Below, piece after piece: positions 1,648-62,936 of a stretch of DNA of 64,000 nucleotides; within the stretch, counting starts at the first letter, position 1, and the number at the start of each line of letters is the position of its first letter. This DNA comes from Octopus vulgaris (taxonomy: Eukaryota). Below the pieces are notes generated by a model. It had not been told where the DNA came from, made no database searches, and was given only the letters and a program-made list of their open reading frames with translations. Both the position numbers and the translations under genes were made by a program. Location: the NCBI GenBank assembly GCA_951406725.2, contig OX597815.1, positions 10,230,001 to 10,294,000 of the forward strand, given 5' to 3'.

Positions 1648-3338
1648 TCTCATAGTGTCTAGCCACGAGCATATTGAGCTGGTCGGCGAGACACTGCAAG
1701 ACTACGAAGCGGTGACAGGAGCGAAAATCAACCGGGAAAAGTCAGTGGGCTTGCGGCTTGGCACCTGGAGAAGCAAGCCAATGCCGTCCATCAGCGCCTC
1801 CGTCGTGGGACGCTGGACCGACGGTCCGGTCGAGTTGCTCGGGGTCTGGTTTGGTCCGGACCTCCAAATAGAGAAGAACTGGAACGAGATAACGAGTAGG
1901 GTGGTCACTCCCGCCCGGCAATGGGCCGAGAGGAAACTGTCCCTAAAAGGTCGGGCGGAGGTGGCGAACACGTACATCGCGTCCGTCATCTACTACCGCC
2001 TGACCGTCGTGCTTGTCTCGATCCTACCATCACCAAACTAGAACGCATTCTCTTCCGCTTCTTGTGGAAAGGATGCGTCCCGATGGTCAGGCGATCCATT
2101 TGCTGTCAACACCCGTTAAAAGGAGCGCTTGGCATGCCGTGGTTGATGATGCGCAGACAGGCGCTGAGACTGCGACATCTCCGGCTCTACGTAGACGACG
2201 GTGAACAGGTGTGGTCGCCGTTTGTGAGGCACGCTTTCCCGCAACTCGTCTCCATGACCGAACTGCAGTCGTGGATCAAAAAGAGGCCGAGGAAGGGCGA
2301 ATGGCACCGCGAGTGTCGCGTTTCTCTCAAGCAACCATGCCGTCCTGGGTCGACCTTGAGCGACTTCAACACAACCAAAGCATTCTATAGGGTATTAGTG
2401 GAGGGGAGGTACGACGACGAGCTCGGTGCGAGCCTGGACGTCGACGAGGAGTACCTGACCTGCCTGTTCAGGACGACTTTCGGGCCGGGACCTTGGACAA
2501 CTTCCAGAGATCACTGGCCTGGCAGTGCTACCGCGAAGCGCTACCCATTCGGGATAAGCTCTACAGACACTGCTCGAGAAACACGGGGCCGACCTGTCCG
2601 AGATGCGGTCAGAGCGACTAAACCGTTCTGCACGCACTCGTGCAGTGTCCAACAATTTCCGACAAGCGGGCTTATGTCGAACGACTGCTTTCACGTGTGG
2701 GATGAGTCGGTTTATCAGCCGAGTCTATCGTCAATATCGTCACGCCTCCTTCCTTCAAACGGGAAGGAAGAGCTATTTTCATCATACTTGTAGCTATGGC
2801 GAAAGAATGTATCTGGTGGACGCGCCTGAAATGATTAGAGACAAACACTTTCCTCTCTGGTCAACCTCTCACCAACTTCTTCAAGTATCACTTGAAAAGG
2901 AAAGTGAGAGCAGAGAGGCAAGTTTTGTCTAGCGAATGTTTCAAAAAAAGATGGGTGAATGTAGCAAGGATGGCACGCATGAATGACAAAGCCACCTTGA
3001 GCATAATCCTATGAACCCGGAAAACTTTAAAACAGAGAGTTACTTACTTGCAAATAAATGTGTTAACATGTGACATTATTGACCGAGGTTACGGTGGTCT
3101 TTTCCGTAGGCTTTTCTTTCTACGGATAAACCTTATCTGCTTCCCCCTTTACATTTTACATCATGACATTTCTGTAATACATGATCCCTATTGATCGTTT
3201 TTTCCCCTTTTTTCTTCCTTTTAACGATCCCTTTTGATCGAAAACCTACCACACTTCTTTTTTTTCTCCCCAAAAAGAAAAGCTCTACTTTATAATTTGT
3301 CCCGTCTGTGTTCAGCCCTGTGTGGCTAATAAAGAAAC
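1648..3338 (+). mobile_element. 5'-truncated Tx1/L1-clade non-LTR retrotransposon (ORF2 C-terminal half with frameshifts and stops, plus 3' UTR)
   Basis: Post-YADD RT residues YEAVTGAKINREKS, LLGVWFG, WAERKLSLKGRAEVANTYIASVIYY, LFRFLWKG, PLKGALGMP; CCHC knuckle CPRCGQSD*TVLHALVQCP near 2595-2650; stop 3012-3014; AATAAA 3328-3333; GC-rich; (TATC)n on both sides. Confidence 0.92.
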
Positions 3339-3666
<328 letters not shown>

Positions 3667-7188: not shown

Positions 7189-7738
7189 TACTGGATATTT
7201 TTATAATGCAGTAATATATATTTTCCAGTGTCAAAAAAAAAAAAAAACTCATAAAAGAAAAGAATTGTCAAAACAGTTGTACGTATCGACGTATCGCGAA
7301 ACTTTTTCGCAGTGTGGAAGGCGGTTACTGAAGCCGAAACTAAGCCTTTTGTCTGTAAATTTTTCAAATTACTAGAGAAAGCAAAAGGGCATAGAACAAC
7401 TTAATTAAGCTAAATTATAATGTGACGACACTAAAAGTAGAATTCTGTACAGCAACAAAAATTTAGCAAAAATTTTCGATCGCTAAATGACGATATTTGA
7501 TGACGTTTTTGATACTTACACATCATTGTCACATCAAGAAAGAAGTCTAAACTAGAGTTCCAGAAGAGAAATCACCTATTTTCCCAAACCCAGTAACTCA
7601 ACTGGTACTTATTCCAACGACCCCGAAAAGAATTTGAACTCAGAACGTAAATAAGGACAATTATAACATTCATACGAAGGGCTCATGAATAAAGAAAAAA
7701 GTAATGATTCAATGTGAGCGCTTATATATGGATACACA

Positions 7739-7972
7739 GAAGGCAGCGAGCTGGTAGAAACGTTAGCGCGCCGGGCGAAATGCTTAGCGGTATTTCGTCT
7801 GTCGTTACTTTCTGAGTTCAAATTCCGCCGAGGTCGACTTTGCCTTTTATCCTTTCGGAGTCGATTAAATAAGTACCAGTTTCGCACTGGGGTCGATGTA
7901 ATCGACTTAATCTCTTTGTTTATCCTTGTTTGTCCCCTCTATGTTTAGCCCCTTGTGGACAGTAAAGAAATG
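7739..7972 (+). mobile_element. tRNA-derived SINE family A, monomer with Tx1-like tail
   Basis: A-box-like TGGTAGAAACGTTAG, B-box GAGTTCAAATTCC, core GCCTTTYATCCTTTCGG.GTCGAT; TSD TATATATGGATACACA at 7723-7738 and 7973-7988. Confidence 0.88.
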
Positions 7973-8230
7973 TATATATGGATACACATCTACACCCACG
8001 GATACACACGCAACGCTGAACGTTCTTTCGTTATCTGATCAGAGACAAATTATGAGAAATGCTCTAATCCCACCATCACTGTGATGAAGCCCCTTGTGGA
8101 CAGTAAAGAAATATATATATGGATACACATCAATACACACGGATACACACGCAACGCTGAACGGTCTTTCGTTATCTGATCAGAGACAAATTATGAGAAA
8201 TGCTCTAATCCCACCATCACTGTGATGAAG
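7947..8230 (+). repeat. Tandem duplication of about 140 bp including the SINE tail and its flank
   Basis: 7947-8087 repeated at 8088-8228; AGC microhomology at the junction. Confidence 0.9.
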
Positions 8231-8295
8231 CGAACTTCTTCAACCCTTAGATACACACACACACACACACACATACACACACACACACACACAAT

Positions 8296-10302: not shown

Positions 10303-10714
10303 GGCGAGCTGGCAGAATCGTTAGCACGCCGGGCGAAATGCTTAGAGGTATTTCGTCTGCCGTTACGTTGTGAGTTCAAATTCCGCCGAGGTCGAATTTG
10401 CCTTTCATCCTTTCGGGGTCGATAAATTAAGTACCAGTTACGTACTGGGGTCGATGTAATCGACTTAATACCTATGTCTGTCCTTGTTTGTCCTCTCTGT
10501 GTTTAGCCCCTTGTGGGTGGTAAAGAATTAGGTATTTCGTCTGTCTTTACGTTCTGAGTTCAAATTCCGCCGAGGCCGACTTTGCCTTTCATCCTTTCGG
10601 GGTCGATAAATTAAGTACCAGTTACGTACTGGGGTCGATGTAATCGACTTAATACCTATGTCTGTCCTTGTTTGTCCTCTCTGTGTTTAGCCCCTTGTGG
10701 GCAATAAAGAAATA
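10303..10714 (+). mobile_element. SINE family A dimer (head plus 2 x 184-bp unit)
   Basis: Units 10347-10530 and 10531-10714; junction AAGAATTA|GGTATTTCG. Confidence 0.9.
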
Positions 10715-39318: not shown

Positions 39319-40658
39319 CACATCTTGGCGTATAAGGGCATTGGGCAAATATGGTATGAATCACAGCTAAGTGTCCCTAAAATAACTCTCTTCCGTCTTG
39401 AAAACAGGACACAATAGATAACGGTCGTGCTAGTAAACGCTAATGGAAGATCGAACGGCTGCAATGGGAATGACCCAAGTATAAGTAGAATAACAGAGTT
39501 CATTGGCTGAAAGGAATCGGGCCAGAACCCTGCTTTCTTCCCAGCAGATACCTGTTTTATCTCCACAGGCACTGAGATTCAGTTTTTTTAAGAATGAAGT
39601 CCTTCTCAGTTTTACCAGGGCTCCAAAAGTTGATGGACGTTTTCTTTTCGTTCCTTAACTAACTTAATACACAATATATATATATATATATATAAATGTA
39701 TAAAATGAATCCCTCACATAATATATTTTGTAATTATAAACAAGGAATTTTCTTCTGCACACATACTGTATTGTATGAGAGTACTGATTACGTTTGCAGG
39801 CGAGGATCATCTTAAAAATACATACAAGATGAAAGTATTGTGTAAAAGTGACTTATACTGCGTATTTGCTGCATTATCTGACAGTAATGAAGCTGTTTGT
39901 AGGCGAGAATTGTTTTAAAAACACATGCGAAATAAAAGCACTGCATATAACTGATTTCCGAACTGTTTAAGTGTTCACAGGGGGAAAAAAAAATAAAGGA
40001 AAAAAATAATCAATATTTCGTGTTAGGTTTACCGGTATAGATAAAGTGCTGTTGTGAAGGAAATCAAGTGTGTAACAGAGGGAATAACGATGCAAAGATG
40101 AAGGCAAACAGGAATGCGATAGAGAAGTAATGTGAGATTGTAATTAGAGAGAGAGAGCGAGAGAGAGCGAGAGAGAGAAAGAGTGAGGGCGGTAGTAAAT
40201 ATGTGAGGCATATAGTGATGCGCGTGCACATACGCGCACGTGCGTCTGATTTTACACTGTTAAGGAAATAAGGGAGACTGTATCTGTCTCTATATTTTAT
40301 TTCATTTTTATTTTATTTTATCTAGTTTCAGCTCACGAGCTGTGGCCATGCTGGGGCACCGCCATTTGGTGTTGCTTTTGATTCTACTTCACGAATGCTT
40401 TTTAGCATCTAGATACACTAGATTATCCTGTGTAGTTTTCTTATGAGGAGAATCTCAACAAGCCAAACCAATTTGTCATAATCCCCATAATAAAGCTGCT
40501 TATCATACCCTTCTTTCTGCAAAACCTCGTATTCTGGAATACACCAAACTGTGGCACCTGCCTACAGGTAAGTACCTACGGGTGCCTACTGGGCAGTTGA
40601 GGGCTAGGCGTCTTAGCCTTCAACACAGTACAGTGAACTAAGCCACGGAGCAATACCT

Positions 40659-40819
40659 ATTTCTTTATTACCCACAAGGGGCTAAACACAGAGGGGACAA
40701 ACAAGGACAGACACACGGATTAAGTCGATTATATCGACCCCAGTGCGTAACTGGTACTTATTTAATCGACCCCGAAAGGATGAAAGGCAAAGTCGACCTC
40801 GGCGGAATTTGAACTCAGA
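40659..40819 (-). mobile_element. Headless SINE family A unit
   Basis: TSD ACGGAGCAATACCT at 40645-40658 and 40820-40833. A further truncated copy lies at 36431-36540 (-). Confidence 0.85.
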
Positions 40820-41652
40820 ACGGAGCAATACCTGCTTACAGTTAGGAGGGGCCGGGCCATCATCACAATTACAATAGCAGCGACTAAAGCAGCAATGACT
40901 AAAGAGCCGCGACCCAACGGGGGTAGCCTGTACGTGGTCACTTGAATTGTTAGAAATAACAGTCAAAACCATACCACGCAGTCTTAACGAAAACCTCATT
41001 GAAACACAATTCCTGATGCACAAGACAGGAGTACTTTTGCTCATAGGTCTGCTAATCAAGTGTGACCTGCAAGAAAATAACAAAAGTCGAATTTTGCAGT
41101 TGCAGCAGCAGTAACCGCAAAGCCAGAACACATTGCAGCTTTCCTGCCCACGCTATTTATAGAATCGTGTTAGACCAATACGACGGCGCCCACACATCAG
41201 CGCTGAACACGTTAAGAACCGCTTCCCCTTGAGGATGCAGTTATGATTTTTCAGCTAAAAGTTAATAAAAGGCGCAGACTAGTCAGGTGGAGATAGGACA
41301 TTCTCGGACAATGTCATTTAGCCTTATCTTTGAGAGAATGCCAATGTGTATGACTGTGTGTGTGCACACGCATGCGTGTATCTGTGTGTCTGTGCAGATA
41401 TGTACGCTTGTGAGTATATATACGAGCATCTTATAAAGAAATATATATATATATGAGCATCTTTGAGCATTTGTCTCTCTCTCTCTTTTAGTGTGTGTTT
41501 GTGCGTATACATCACACACACACACACACACACACACATTTTATTGAAGCTGAAAAGACAACACAAGCTGTTACTTAGAGTTTTATCTTAACTGATTGTC
41601 AGACATTTTTATTCACGAATGCCACCGATCGTCAGACAGTCCGTGAATAAAA

Positions 41653-55612: not shown

Positions 55613-55771
55613 TTGTAAGACTCTGTTGTATCTGTTTAACCTTTCATAGAGCTGTTAATTTTTCTGTAGCCTGGGGATACGTTTACGCTGCTTCATATTT
55701 ATCGACTGTGTGATGTTTAGTTCTTCTGCTTTTGTTATTTCTTCAATCGGTTCGTCTCCTTCATCGGTTAA

Positions 55772-56186
55772 GGAGGCGAGCTGGCAGAAACGTTAGCACG
55801 CCGGCGAAATGCTGAGCGGTATTTCGTCTGCCGTTACGTTCTGAGTTCAAATTCCGCCGAGGTCGACTTTGCCTTTCGTCCTTTCGGGGTCGATTTAATA
55901 AGTACTAGTTGCGCACTGGGGTCAATGTAATCGACTTAATCCGTTTGTCTGTCCTTGTTTGTCCCCTCTGTGTGTAGCCCCTTGTGGGTAGTAAAGAAAT
56001 AGGTATTTCGTCTGGCGCTACGTTCTGAGTTCAAATTCCGCCGAGGTCGACTTTGCCTTTCATCCTTTCAGCGTCGATTAAATAAGTACCAGTAACGCAT
56101 AGGGGGGTCAATGTAATCGACTTAATCCGTTTGTTTGTCCTTGTTTGTCCCCTCTGTGTTTAGCTCCTTGTGGGTAATAAAGAAAC
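55772..56186 (+). mobile_element. SINE family A dimer
   Basis: Head plus two units; junction AAGAAATA|GGTATTTCG at 56001/56002. Confidence 0.9.
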
Positions 56187-56685
56187 AGGTTATAGCTGGT
56201 CTGTTATAGTATGTGTCATTGTGTATATTGTTGTTTTATGCTTCAGTATTCGCCTATGTGTGTTGTTGACTTGTTGTGCTGTTCTATTTATTTCTGGGTT
56301 GGGTAGCTGTGTAGAGATTTTACTTTGGTTTAGCCTTTTATTTACTATTTGCAGTGTTATTTCTGTCGTGTTCCCTTCTTTCTTTTATGGTGTCTTATGC
56401 GCTTTCGGAGACGTAATGTCTGGTGTGCTGTTTTTGCCTGATTGCGACCCATTGTTTTGACTTATGACGCGTTTTGTTTTATTTTCCGTGTGTATTTTAT
56501 CTACTAGTTTGTCTATTTCGATTTGGGACACTTTGCCCTCTCGCAGGATATACCGCCGGACATTCGCAAGAGTATTCTCCGAGACATTTCCCCTTCTATT
56601 AGTAGTTCTTCTCCATGCTTGGTATGTTTCTCTTGTTATCCCTGTTTTCCCCGGATATAGTTATCCCTGTGTTTCCCCGAGTAGA

Positions 56686-56748
<63 letters not shown>

Positions 56749-56978
56749 TCTCTTGTCCTGGCAATACTTGCTATATAACGTTCCTATGTTCGCATAACAT
56801 TTTGTAGAGTTTCTTTAGGACTAGACATATCTTTTTTGTGTCTTATCACCTGAAATTTAAAAGTTTAGTTTCATTTTCTCAACTAATTTAAGCAAAAAAT
56901 AAAAAAAAAAAAAACAAAAAACAAAACAAAACAAAAAAACCTAAACAAACAAGCATGAAGATATTTCCGAGTACTTTG

Positions 56979-57060
56979 TTATTTTAGTTCTTTTATTTTA
57001 GTTCTTTTATTTTAGTTCTTTTATTTTAGTTCTTTTATTTTAGTTCTTTTACTTTAGTTC
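56979..57060. repeat. 14-bp tandem repeat (TAGTTCTTTTATTT) about 6 copies
   Basis: Direct reading; (AATAT)n also present at 44884-44968. Confidence 0.95.
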
Positions 57061-57444
57061 AAAAATATTGATAATCGCACAGAAAACAAACAAAACGATG
57101 TTTATTTAAATACGAATACTTTACTCCAAGAATCATGCAATTTAAATGGAGTGGGGGTAGGGAATGACTTTTCTGACGAGAATGCTAGTACTGAGAATAC
57201 TTTTAGTGATTTACATAGCCACAACAACAACAACAACAACAGCAGCACAAGCCGTCCAAGAATTTGGACCTGGAGATTTCCATTTCCAGCGACTTCAAGG
57301 GCCACCGCCCAGTGGTGTCGGACGTCAACGAAGAGCCCTCGACTACAACAAAACGACCAAAGTTTTTTGTTTTTCCAAGGTCTGGGGTTTCCCGCCCCTA
57401 AGCCCTAGACCATCACCTAATCACTCTTAACCGTCTTGTTGCTT

Positions 57445-57481
<37 letters not shown>

Positions 57482-58007
57482 GCAGCAGCAGCAACAACAA
57501 CAACAACTACAACACCAGCCTACGGTTTTGTACATACGGCTTTGTCAATATCGCTTCCAATAAAGAAATTTTGGCAACAGACATTGTCTGGTTAAAGAAA
57601 AAAAGTTTGGCAGTGATGGGTCACAAAGGAGTACGCCATCTTACTCACGGAATTTGCCCAAGAGTGGACAAGGTAAAAAAAATGAAAGACCCCACCCTTG
57701 TGAAGGAAAGCAGGACTTTCTATACCTTTTTGAAAGATAGATTGAAAGAAATCCTGGCCGATGAGTGGATGGATATAATTTCTATCGGTCAGTATGAGGC
57801 GTATATTGGTGTTTGCCTTGATTACAAGTCCAAAATCGAAGCAAAATGTCAAACAGAGATAGTATGATGCACACCTGTCCAATACATGGGTCTGTGTAGT
57901 CCAGGTGTGCAATCAGATACATTGGCAGCGACACTGACCCAGTGCTTGTTGTCATGTTTGTGTCGATCTTGTCTTCTATAATATCTAGGACTATATATCT
58001 AGGACTA

Positions 58008-58414
58008 GGGCGGCGAGCTGGCAGAAACGTTAGCACACCGGGCGAAACACTTAGCGGTATTTCGTCTGCCGCTACGTTTTGAGTTCAAATTCCGCCGAGG
58101 TCGACTTTGCCTTTCATCCTTTCGGGGTCGATTAAATAAGTACTAGTTACGCTCTGGGGTCGATATAATCGACTTAATCCGTTTGTCTGTCCTTGTTTGT
58201 CCTCTCTGTGTTTAGCCCCTTGTGGGTAGTAAAGAAATAGAAATAGGTATTTCGTCTGTCTTTACGTTCTGAGTTCAAATTCCGTTGAGGTCGACTTTGC
58301 CTTTCATCCTTTCAGGTTCGATAAATTAAGTACTAGTTGCGTATTGGGGTCGATCTAATCGACTGGCCCCATTCCCGAAAATTTCAGGCCTTGTGCCTAG
58401 AGCAGAAAAGAATA
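58008..58414 (+). mobile_element. SINE family A heterodimer (unit 1 with tail A, unit 2 with tail B)
   Basis: Junction 58245/58246; second unit ends in ...AAATTTCAGGCCTTGTGCCTAGAGCAGAAAAG; TSD TATATATCTAGGACTA at 57992-58007 and 58415-58430. Confidence 0.9.
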
Positions 58415-58521
58415 TATATATCTAGGACTACACCATCCATTGTGATCCTACTTTCTCATAAGCTAAAAGGGTTGCTATTTCTGACAAATTTAGTGTCCTC
58501 CCACAGGCTTTCCTCGTTAGC

Positions 58522-58921
58522 TTACTCTTTTACTTGTTTCAGTCATTTGACTGCGGCCATGCTGGAGCACCGCCTTTAGTCGAGCAACTCGACCCCGGAA
58601 CTTATTCTTTGTAAGCCCAGTACTTATTCTATCGGTCTCTTTTGCCGAACCGCTAAGTGACGGGGATATAAACACACCAGCATCGGTTGTCAAGCAATGC
58701 TAGGGGGACAAACACATACACACATACACACACACGCATATATATATATACATATATACGACGGGCTTCTTTCAGTTTCCGCCTGCCAAATCCACTCCCA
58801 AGGCTTTGGTCGTCCCGAGGCTATAGTAGAAAACACTTGGCCAAGATGCCACGCAGTGGGACTGAACCAGGAACCGTGTGGTTGGTAAGCAAGCTACTTA
58901 CCACACAACCACTCCTGCACC
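58522..58921 (-). mobile_element. SINE family B, full length
   Basis: Reverse complement of the family B consensus. Confidence 0.9.
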
Positions 58922-59570
58922 TTGTTGGCGATGTTAACAATGATGGTGATGGTGATGATGATGATGATCGGGTCGTATTGTTATTGCCTACCTTGTATTT
59001 ATTTGGCTGACTGCAGTTGCTATGGCACCGGTGTTTTGACACCGGTTCTGATAATAACAACGGTTGTTGATATTGTTATGGCGACGCTGTTTTGGCGACT
59101 GTATTCGACACAGCTTACAGGTAATTGTTGCTGTGCTGTTGATGGTGATGCTGATAATGATGATGATGATGGTGTTGCTGTGGTTGCAGGTCTTGTTGAT
59201 GTTACTGCAGTTATCGTTGCAGTTTATTTTTGCAGTTGTTTATTTTTGCAGATCAAGGTCAACCCCTGAACGAACTCGATCTGAAGGGCACATCGGCCGT
59301 GACCATCCCCTATTTTTAATTATACACATCGTCACCTTTATTATGCAATATGCATTCCATCTTTTTAAGGGGTGAAATTATGAACCAAGAGAGATTTAGC
59401 TGCTATTTTTAGCAAATAGAGTGATCGGCTATAGACCCCTTCGAATCGTGGTATTGTTACTGATGATGTTTTTTTTGGGATATTGTTGTTTTAGTTTTGT
59501 TGTTGTTGTTGTTTTTATTCTTGTTGTTGTTCTGTAGTGTCAGACCAGCTATGACCCGGCAAAGTTTACC

Positions 59571-60161
59571 CATTTCTTTACTACCCACAAGTGGCTACAC
59601 ACAGAGAGGACAAACAAGTACAGACAAACGGATTAAGTCGATTACATCGACCCCAGGCATAACTGGTACTTAATTTATCGACCCCGAAAAGATGAAAGGC
59701 AAAGTTGACCTCGGCGGAATTTGAACTCAGAACGTAGCGGCAGACGCAATACCTATTTCTTTACTACCCACAAGTGGCTACACACAGAGGGGTCAAACAA
59801 GGACAAACAAACGGATTAAGTCAATTACATCGACCCCAGTGCATAACTGGTACTTAATTTATCGACCCCGAAAGGATGAAAGGCAAAGTCGACTCCGGCG
59901 GAATTTGAACTCAGAACGTAGCGGCAGACGAAATACCTATTTCTTTACTACCCACAACGTGCTAAACACATAGGGGACAAACAAGGACAGACAAACGAAT
60001 TAAGTCGATTACATCGACCCCAGTGCGTAACTGGTACTTATTTAATCGACCCCGAAAGGATGAAAGGCAAAGTCGACCTCGGTGGAATTTGAACTCAGAA
60101 CGTAACGGCAGACGAAATACCTCTAAGCATTTTGTCCGGCGTGCTAACGTTTCTGCCAGCT
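59571..60161 (-). mobile_element. SINE family A trimer
   Basis: Junctions 59753/59754 and 59937/59938; TSD GGCAAAGTTTACC at 59558-59570 and 60162-60174. Confidence 0.92.
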
Positions 60162-60756
60162 GGCAAAGTTTACCGTCAAGTAGGTAATCGAACAAAAGAC
60201 CTAGATTCGATCCATAAACTCCCATATTTCTGACAATAGCATCCATTGTCGCAGCTATTGTAAAAATTGTTAATTTTATCATTCTTTATAGCTGCAATTC
60301 AATTCCCGTCAAGGTCCATTTTGTCTTTCATCTTTACCGAAGTCAATAGAATACAATGGCGCAGAATCGATTTCATCAATAAACCACCGCCCCCTAAACC
60401 TGTGATTCCGTCTCTTATTATTATTGCTATTTTTATTGGTATTCTTAACGGTGAATCTTGTGGCCATCATCGTCGTTGTTGTCTCTGTTCGTTATTGCAT
60501 CTAACCACTATCGTGGAACACGAGGCACCGCCGCCATTTCGTTGTTTCTGCTCACGTGCACTCCATTCTTGCACGTGATCCTCATTAGCTGCACATTTAA
60601 TTCACTTTAGTATTCCTATTGAAGAACAACTTCAAAGAAATAGCAGCCAAAGCACTATTAAAACACAATTTTGTGACTTTAAAATAAAAAGAAATGTGGG
60701 GAAAAAGGATATATTGGATTATGTAACGTTAGGTAGTATACTATGTTTGAACTTTA

Positions 60757-62342: not shown

Positions 62343-62936
62343 TTATGAAGACACACACACACACATTGCAAGCACACGTCCGCCGCATCCAGACACCCAC
62401 ACACGTACACTGCATAAACACACGTGCATTGATACACATACATACATACATACATACATACATACATACATACATACATACACGTTGAAACGCAGTCAAC
62501 GTGGAATCCTCTGCGTGATCGCTGAAAGACAGAAATGTCCGCCAGATGTCTTTCGTGTAACATTGCGTCGTCTTCATAAGTAGTGTGACACGTTTTTCTG
62601 ATAAATATAAAAGGTCAAAAAAAAAAAAAAAGCAAAATCTCTGGATGATCACGGCTGATCATCCATGTATGATACGTATGGACACAAGTCAGTTCCATAT
62701 ACTCTCTCCCTTTTACTCTTTTACTTGTTTCAGTCATGTCATTTGACTGCGGCCATGCTGGAGCACCGCCTTTAAGTCGAGCAAATCCGACCCCCAGGAC
62801 TTATTCTTTGTAAGCCTAGTACTTATTCAATCGGTCTCTTTTTGCCGAACTGCTAAGTTACGGGGACGTAAACACACTAGCATCGGTTGTCAAGCGATGT
62901 TGGGGGGACAAACACAGACACACAAACATTACACAC

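Follow-up and report, generated by a model that had tools for sequence, protein, structure and literature searches.

Several described elements come close to the structure reported here. For SINEU-3 of crocodilians and Tx1 LINEs, the features described include a preferred target that lies within a different repeat, tandem copies that arose by one insertion after another and target-site duplications (TSDs) of a length similar to ours (PMC4494074). Rodent B2 and Dip elements are multimeric in up to about half of their copies, with the origin of the multimers left open, and the same text describes TATTT as ending Pol III transcription of other SINEs (PMC8466645). Squamate sSat has tandem units shorter than the SINE, and its longer arrays are made more uniform by DNA-level processes (PMC10702118). 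Non-LTR retrozymes likewise appear as short tandem monomers dispersed in animal genomes (bioRxiv 10.64898/2026.07.22.740005; see also PMC4918200). MetaSINEs have a tRNA-type head (PMC4824008), as does our element, the central domain of which may be Meta-like. For the joining of ends, the R2 model has the cDNA pair with homologous upstream target sequence at the 5′ junction (PMC6895275). For SART1, and for R1Bm as cited there, RNA is described as pairing with the target when reverse transcription begins (PMC7265360).

Here we describe a SINE found in multi-unit arrays in a 64,000-nucleotide stretch of the Octopus vulgaris genome (the window). Our main reading, to which we assign a probability of about 0.75, is that new SINE copies insert, in a stepwise manner, into older copies of their own or a sister family at a GGTAT motif, position 48 of the consensus. 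Insertion would likely proceed by target-primed reverse transcription with a LINE of matching tail.

A fixed junction in an octopus SINE

All copies were parsed against consensus references for family A, which consists of a 47-nt head and a 184-nt unit, and separately for family B, which has the same head and central domain and a different tail. The copies are dispersed, high in number and flanked by TSDs, and 5′ truncations are present. A- and B-box-like motifs are visible, as is an acceptor-like stem in the fold; ARAGORN found no tRNA. The motif in the head of the trimer is presumably an A box, and the central domain of the SINE may correspond to the 66-bp Meta domain.

The preliminary description of the window had listed four multi-unit loci, and all were present (Table 1), the trimer running from 59571 to 60164 on the minus strand. 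Its unit length of 184 bp did not hold throughout, as the second unit of the chimeric dimer, 58246–58414, comes from a sister SINE family that is distinguished by its tail. All five junctions, said to be alike, do resume at consensus position 48, but the one at 58239/58246 has an extra 6-nt tail repeat, owing to which the preceding unit measures 190 nt. The junction had also been placed at a hairpin loop; more exactly, position 48 is the first base after the 4-nt loop (44–47) of a 13-pair RNA hairpin in the consensus fold. This hairpin has four G–U pairs, on which ground we reject a DNA cruciform as the target signal, and the RNA fold of the whole monomer was no better than shuffles (z = −0.41).

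The single 13-bp TSD reported for the trimer is exact. A 16-bp TSD flanks the chimeric dimer (57992–58007 and 58415–58430), and none was found at 10303–10714 or 55772–56186. Within the trimer, unit 1 is 91% identical to each of units 2 and 3, which are 95% identical to each other and have variants in common. Judged from these sequences, the simplest history combines a single independent insertion with a single further event, either a duplication or an insertion from the same source. Elsewhere in the window, at 7947–8231, a SINE tail and its 3′ flank form a 141-bp tandem duplication that arose at the DNA level with a private junction.

Table 1. Features of the window discussed in the text (coordinates count from the first nucleotide of the window)
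Feature	Position	Strand	Remarks
SINE head of the trimer, consensus positions 5–47	60122..60164	−	A-box-like motif; hairpin 5′ arm and loop; from alignment and fold
Trimer unit 1, 184 bp	59938..60121	−	B-box-like motif, central domain, LINE-derived tail
Trimer unit 2	59754..59937	−	begins at position 48
Trimer unit 3, 3′-terminal	59571..59753	−	putative original element
Trimer 13-bp TSD, 3′ copy	59558..59570		starts GGTA on the element's strand
Trimer 13-bp TSD, 5′ copy	60162..60174		
Head and two type-A units	10303..10714	+	units 95% alike
Head and two type-A units	55772..56186	+	units 92% alike
Chimera: head, type-A unit, sister-family-B unit	58009..58414	+	6-nt tail repeat after the type-A unit
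Type-A monomer	7742..7971	+	16-bp TSD beginning TATAT (7723–7738, 7973–7988)
5′-truncated type-A monomer	40658..40822	−	within non-SINE DNA
LINE 3′ fragment, frameshifted	1655..3341	+	candidate partner; SINE tail matched over the final ~45 nt

Tabulated across the 2.8-Gb genome, the exact junction of tail to position 48 occurs 34,899 times (17,171 + 17,728). A reversed control gave 0, so the fixed junction is not a product of chance. When a gap of 1–30 nt was left free, the spacing was identical in 91 of the 100 matches listed (of 29,818). In the blocks described below together with the window, complete A tails numbered 204. Position 48 follows the tail in 94 of them and, after the 6-nt tail repeat, in 4 more; 91 lead into flanking sequence, 8 to head position 16 (junction 2) and 7 elsewhere. 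Junction 2 has a period of 217 bp and 2,436 exact copies (for example, L006, L011 and L026).

We sampled 1.6 Mb in 14 blocks which, with the window, came to 1.664 Mb; targeted searches supplied further loci. Of the blocks, five on C1 were picked as junction-rich, and the remaining ones were arbitrary and had few junctions. Junction density outside C1 and C2 was 0–1 per 100 kb, and the young subfamily is spread very unevenly over the genome. The first 100 junction-2 matches listed span 145 Mb of C1, and the first 100 matches listed for the position-48 junction lie within 3.8 Mb. Blocks on C3, C8, C12, C16, C20, C24 and C27 held 0 exact junctions in 700 kb, and C2 beside the window held 11 in 200 kb. 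Near-identical sequence was listed for five organisms. Two loci have unusual neighbours: past the junction at L024 the same SINE occurs again in reverse orientation, in a tail-to-tail arrangement, and at L300 a different tRNA-like repeat starts about 15 nt past a position-48 junction.

Array composition and nested insertions

One explanation offered for the fixed junction was that the SINE RNA is cut in the hairpin loop and circularised, giving rolling-circle reverse transcription as proposed for retrozymes. The junction does lie at the loop edge of the predicted hairpin, and some long arrays have internal units that are 99–100% identical. The dimers, however, give a different picture. In 26 A–A dimers, after removal of two segmental duplicates, unit identity was 0.90 within and 0.89 between dimers and reached 0.98 in only two, so the units of a dimer are as unlike as random units. 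The expectation that units within a locus would be alike thus failed, and the mixing of families within one array, expected from serial self-insertion, was found. GGTAT is also used in non-SINE DNA, a circle would be without the head, in long arrays the internal units are hybrids that arose by crossover with the terminal one, and an Rfam search of 55700–60300 at E ≤ 5 returned no ribozyme family (and no tRNA). We regard the circular route as having next to no chance of being correct.

Dimers could also arise by DNA slippage: in a monomer inserted at a GGTAT target, slippage between the GGTAT at position 48 and the one after the tail would duplicate one unit and leave the observed junction. This accounts for the two dimers, out of 26, whose units are 98% identical (at 62902 of block C1b, for example, a 10-bp deletion is shared and the 12-bp TSD starts GGTATT). 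Over 50 dimers, however, rare variants were shared by both units in 13 cases and unshared in 354 (136 in unit 1 only and 218 in unit 2 only), and A–B chimeras are impossible by slippage. DNA slippage is refuted as the main route to dimers, and as a general explanation it is very improbable; it holds for later expansion.

Evidence for such expansion comes from arrays of 4–11 units, whose internal units are 97–100% identical at several loci. These internal units are hybrids, with a 5′ part like the terminal unit, even where this is B, and a 3′ part like the A unit. Near-identical hybrid units of this kind show unequal exchange at the DNA level after a dimer exists. Elements with at least four units make up 7 of the 111 headed elements in the blocks, and arrays of this size have mostly grown later by unequal exchange, the fourth step of our account. 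We also saw family-B arrays (L089–L092, G000:C5:48225501-48226038, and L086–L088) whose junctions are private to the locus and whose period is about 165. In these, a tandem seed other than the fixed junction has expanded; any tandem seed can expand at the DNA level.

A third explanation is that a few multimeric masters are transcribed through and retrotransposed whole; the preliminary description held descent from one multimeric master copy to be the simpler alternative. As a main route this fits poorly with the last units of the arrays. The terminal unit is often family B or an older relative with another tail, at 74–95% identity, so that several older families are represented, and the haplotype pairs of units 1 and 2 in dimers are diverse. 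The B unit of A–B dimers has diverged further than the preceding unit in 16 of 20 cases, against 3 with the reverse (p = 0.0004; the A consensus served as the reference, and one B-diagnostic site was left unmasked). A–A dimers show no age gradient (0.046 versus 0.052; 16 versus 11; p = 0.53). Neither a circular template nor one master can yield this polarity together with the mixture of families. B tails that continue at an internal site numbered only 44 genome-wide, at mixed positions, so this family hardly ever acts as a junction donor.

Some observations do favour a contribution from whole multimers. The unit consensus has T runs of three at most and no run of four T. Of 31 terminal B units, 9 have A-type bases that reach 14–16 nt beyond the junction; of 75 free B units, 6 have them (p = 0.011; some are copies within one array). 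This implies that some donors carried the junction. One linked pair of diagnostic sites, 125/128, is concordant within A–A dimers in 21 of 25 (p = 0.001), above chance, and independent insertion alone does not predict this. Three arrays lack a head and start with a truncated unit, as copying of an entire array would produce; no TSD was found around these three. The concordance and the headless arrays hint at whole-multimer transcripts or conversion tracts, probably as a minority contribution. Masters as the main source are unlikely, given also the nested TSDs described below.

Direct support for self-insertion comes from loci in which a SINE sits inside another with both duplications in place. 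We found 58 exact sites with an old head, about 16 nt and a new head; the spacer peaks at 15–17 nt (37 of 58), as ordinary TSDs do. In five of six distinct loci inspected, a complete SINE with a TSD copy on either side separates the head of the older element from its body, with duplications starting from position 48; the sixth, L315, has no nested insertion. At L313 a private base is common to both TSD copies, and the junction bases are target-derived. L314 has an inner 15-bp TSD and an outer 17-bp TSD. Nested insertion thus preserves the TSD of the older element, so a single outer TSD is uninformative on whether an array moved as a whole, as had been concluded for the trimer. Related cases are L292, where a 5′-inverted, 5′-truncated copy lies inside a very old SINE at position 48, and position 82020 of the C20 block, where a truncated copy lies in a B head at junction 2 with a 14-bp TSD. 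A search for the position-16 analogue of these intermediates gave six mixed matches. The nested loci show the second step of our account, in which insertion at position 48 produces a normal duplication of about 15–17 bp.

In the third step, which would apply to about 98% of events, the cDNA end may pair with homologous sequence in the head or body of the old copy; alternatively, the two heads may collapse into one at a later time. The outcome would be a head and two units beneath the old TSD, with one 184-bp unit gained. We infer this step because unresolved intermediates are rare: a rough estimate, calibrated on junction-rich blocks, puts them at about 1,000 against about 51,000 junctions. 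A duplicated head is present at L288, and none was found in the 66 multi-unit arrays of the blocks. The earlier suggestion of self-insertion at one site with homology-guided 5′ joining is thus the one that is supported, by the unresolved intermediates among other evidence. At L318 (G000:C1:194001244-194001347) the 65-bp segment of head and TSD from an unresolved nested insertion is itself tandemly repeated, and similar 65-bp pairs occur among the matches on C11 and C20.

Target choice and the partner LINE

At non-SINE sites, the tail is directly followed by the TSD, both copies of which open with GGTAT; the motif therefore belonged to the target. The truncated monomer at 40658..40822 has a 14-bp TSD with GGTATT in both copies (40645–40658 and 40820–40833). 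We recorded what follows the tail at flanks from the blocks, L002–L030 and L273–L312, a set not selected on terminal flank and from which SINE-like continuations were excluded. T219 tails (n = 71) were followed by GGT in 37 cases and by GGTAT in 23, against backgrounds of 0.011 and 0.0007, respectively. C219 tails (n = 47) were followed by GGT in 7, a significantly different proportion (p = 4 × 10⁻⁵), by TAT in 19 and by AGA in 10.

The SINE itself contains such motifs, with GGTATTT at position 48 and AGAA at position 16. A preference for targets starting with GGTAT, of which the SINE's own position 48 is one, constitutes the first step of our account. Donors at position 48 have the T219 tail in 87 of 94 cases, and donors at junction 2 have the C219 tail in 86 of 100 among the first matches listed (2,436 in all). 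GGTAT is kept in 86 of the 94 position-48 junctions. In monomers it is present at site 48 in only 23 of 51 of type A and 10 of 72 that are B-like. We also observed CGTAT at site 48 in 18 of 51 A monomers versus 7 of 52 first units of arrays; a CGTAT subfamily may escape self-insertion.

The candidate partner LINE is represented in the window by its 3′ end, in which 3296–3337 matches the SINE tail at 83%. The fragment at 1655–3341 gave no match in Pfam or PDB, and an Atlas search with it gave an RT lead only. Relatives of this LINE have endonuclease, RT and zf-RVT domains, a set that would fit L1/Tx1. LINE-type tails accounted for 2 of 5 body-less tails in a tail scan. Many partner-LINE copies among L032–L060 end straight in (TATC)n or (TA)n microsatellites, and others show a graded match.

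In self-insertion, the endonuclease of a LINE subfamily with its own sequence preference could determine the site, with different partners at different times giving the GGTAT, AGAA and TAT targets. Target choice in the Tx1 clade is mainly endonuclease-set (PMC4494074). Weak information upstream of the nick is compatible with this (G at −3 in 16 of 29 and no G at −1, in a set that includes 27 loci selected on GGTAT), as are the fading of target information beyond 5–6 nt, the target-derived junction bases of L313 and the occurrence of both alleles of a head site in position-16 junctions. The LINE copies themselves, however, behave differently. After the 3′ ends of the 30 copies closest to that of the window, GGTAT was found in none, and TAT/TATC sites were found instead; these copies thus give no support to site-specific nicking by the partner's endonuclease. 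Matches to LINE-type prefix, tail and AGGTAT numbered two genome-wide, one 3′ UTR type having been searched. Furthermore, the T219 and C219 subfamilies are identical over their last 9 nt but differ in their targets, each of which equals what follows the subfamily's own junction. We consider an endonuclease-set site possible but doubtful.

RNA pairing could account for this last observation. In its favour are the contrast between T219 and C219 tails in the motif that follows them and in the junction they donate, the lack of GGTAT after the 30 LINE copies and the A-type bases past the junction in terminal B units; the weak information upstream of the nick counts against it. In the fifth step of our account, the 3′ end of a read-through RNA would pair with the nicked target and so choose the site, and each subfamily would favour the sequence that flanks its own source copies. 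We put this at a little under an even chance, with the remainder beyond these two possibilities going to a mixture of them. We speculate that Pol III termination at TATTT might leave a short GGUAU overhang on the SINE RNA. RNA-templated correction of the 3′ TSD copy was well supported at only 2–3 of 32 loci. A broader proposal, which we make tentatively, is that target preference is inherited through the RNA and not the protein, so that copies landing in their own head would found self-homing lineages. Two such lineages may have arisen, at GGTAT (position 48) and at AGAA (position 16).

Significance and relation to known systems

Self-insertion explains, with intermediates, a genome-wide repeat architecture of at least 34,899 junctions and offers a direct path by which satellite-like arrays can arise from a SINE. 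It also provides a large natural dataset on 5′ junction formation with homology and on RNA–DNA pairing versus endonuclease in target choice. If the fifth step is correct, an endonuclease/RT machine would be redirected to other targets by a few bases at the trailing end of the RNA. If targeting is inherited through RNA, a self-reinforcing choice would turn monomers into chains, reshuffle subfamilies and seed satellites, and variants mutated at the site would escape. For annotation, subfamily consensus sequences and copy ages should be treated with caution here, as they are mosaics.

In the literature searched, we found no SINE described as targeting a fixed base of its own head; the octopus SINE paper of Ohshima and Okada (1994), the R1Bm paper and Repbase lay outside the search and may bear on novelty. 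The available portions of PMC13282606, PMC4758252, PMC3747384 and PMC8967140 do not describe the structure.

The closest systems differ from ours in several respects, as far as the available text of each goes. SINEU-3 targets Mariner and keeps the TSD between its tandem copies (PMC4494074), whereas the octopus SINE has its target within its own head region and its arrays usually lack a second head; the examined LINE copies have another target. R2, R1 and SART1 are autonomous and have one protein-defined host target; here, the SINE is its own target, through a loose 5-nt motif that varies by subfamily. Multimers of rodent B2 and Dip consist of head-to-tail units, possibly from insertion into the tail (PMC8466645), whereas the octopus units are headless and joined at a fixed internal base. 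Squamate sSat is credited to unequal recombination or same-locus insertion, and the terms 'target site' and 'reverse transcription' are absent from the part of that text examined (PMC10702118). By contrast, the seed dimer here would come from site-fixed retrotransposition with TSD intermediates. Unlike retrozymes, the octopus SINE has no hammerhead ribozyme and its units are non-clonal; it has a tRNA-type head, a LINE tail and TSDs. For MetaSINEs, no tandem or self-targeting behaviour is described in the portion available (PMC4824008). Taken as a whole, the proposed mechanism would resemble Tx1 LINEs and SINEU-3 in its first step, R2 in its third and squamate sSat in its fourth.
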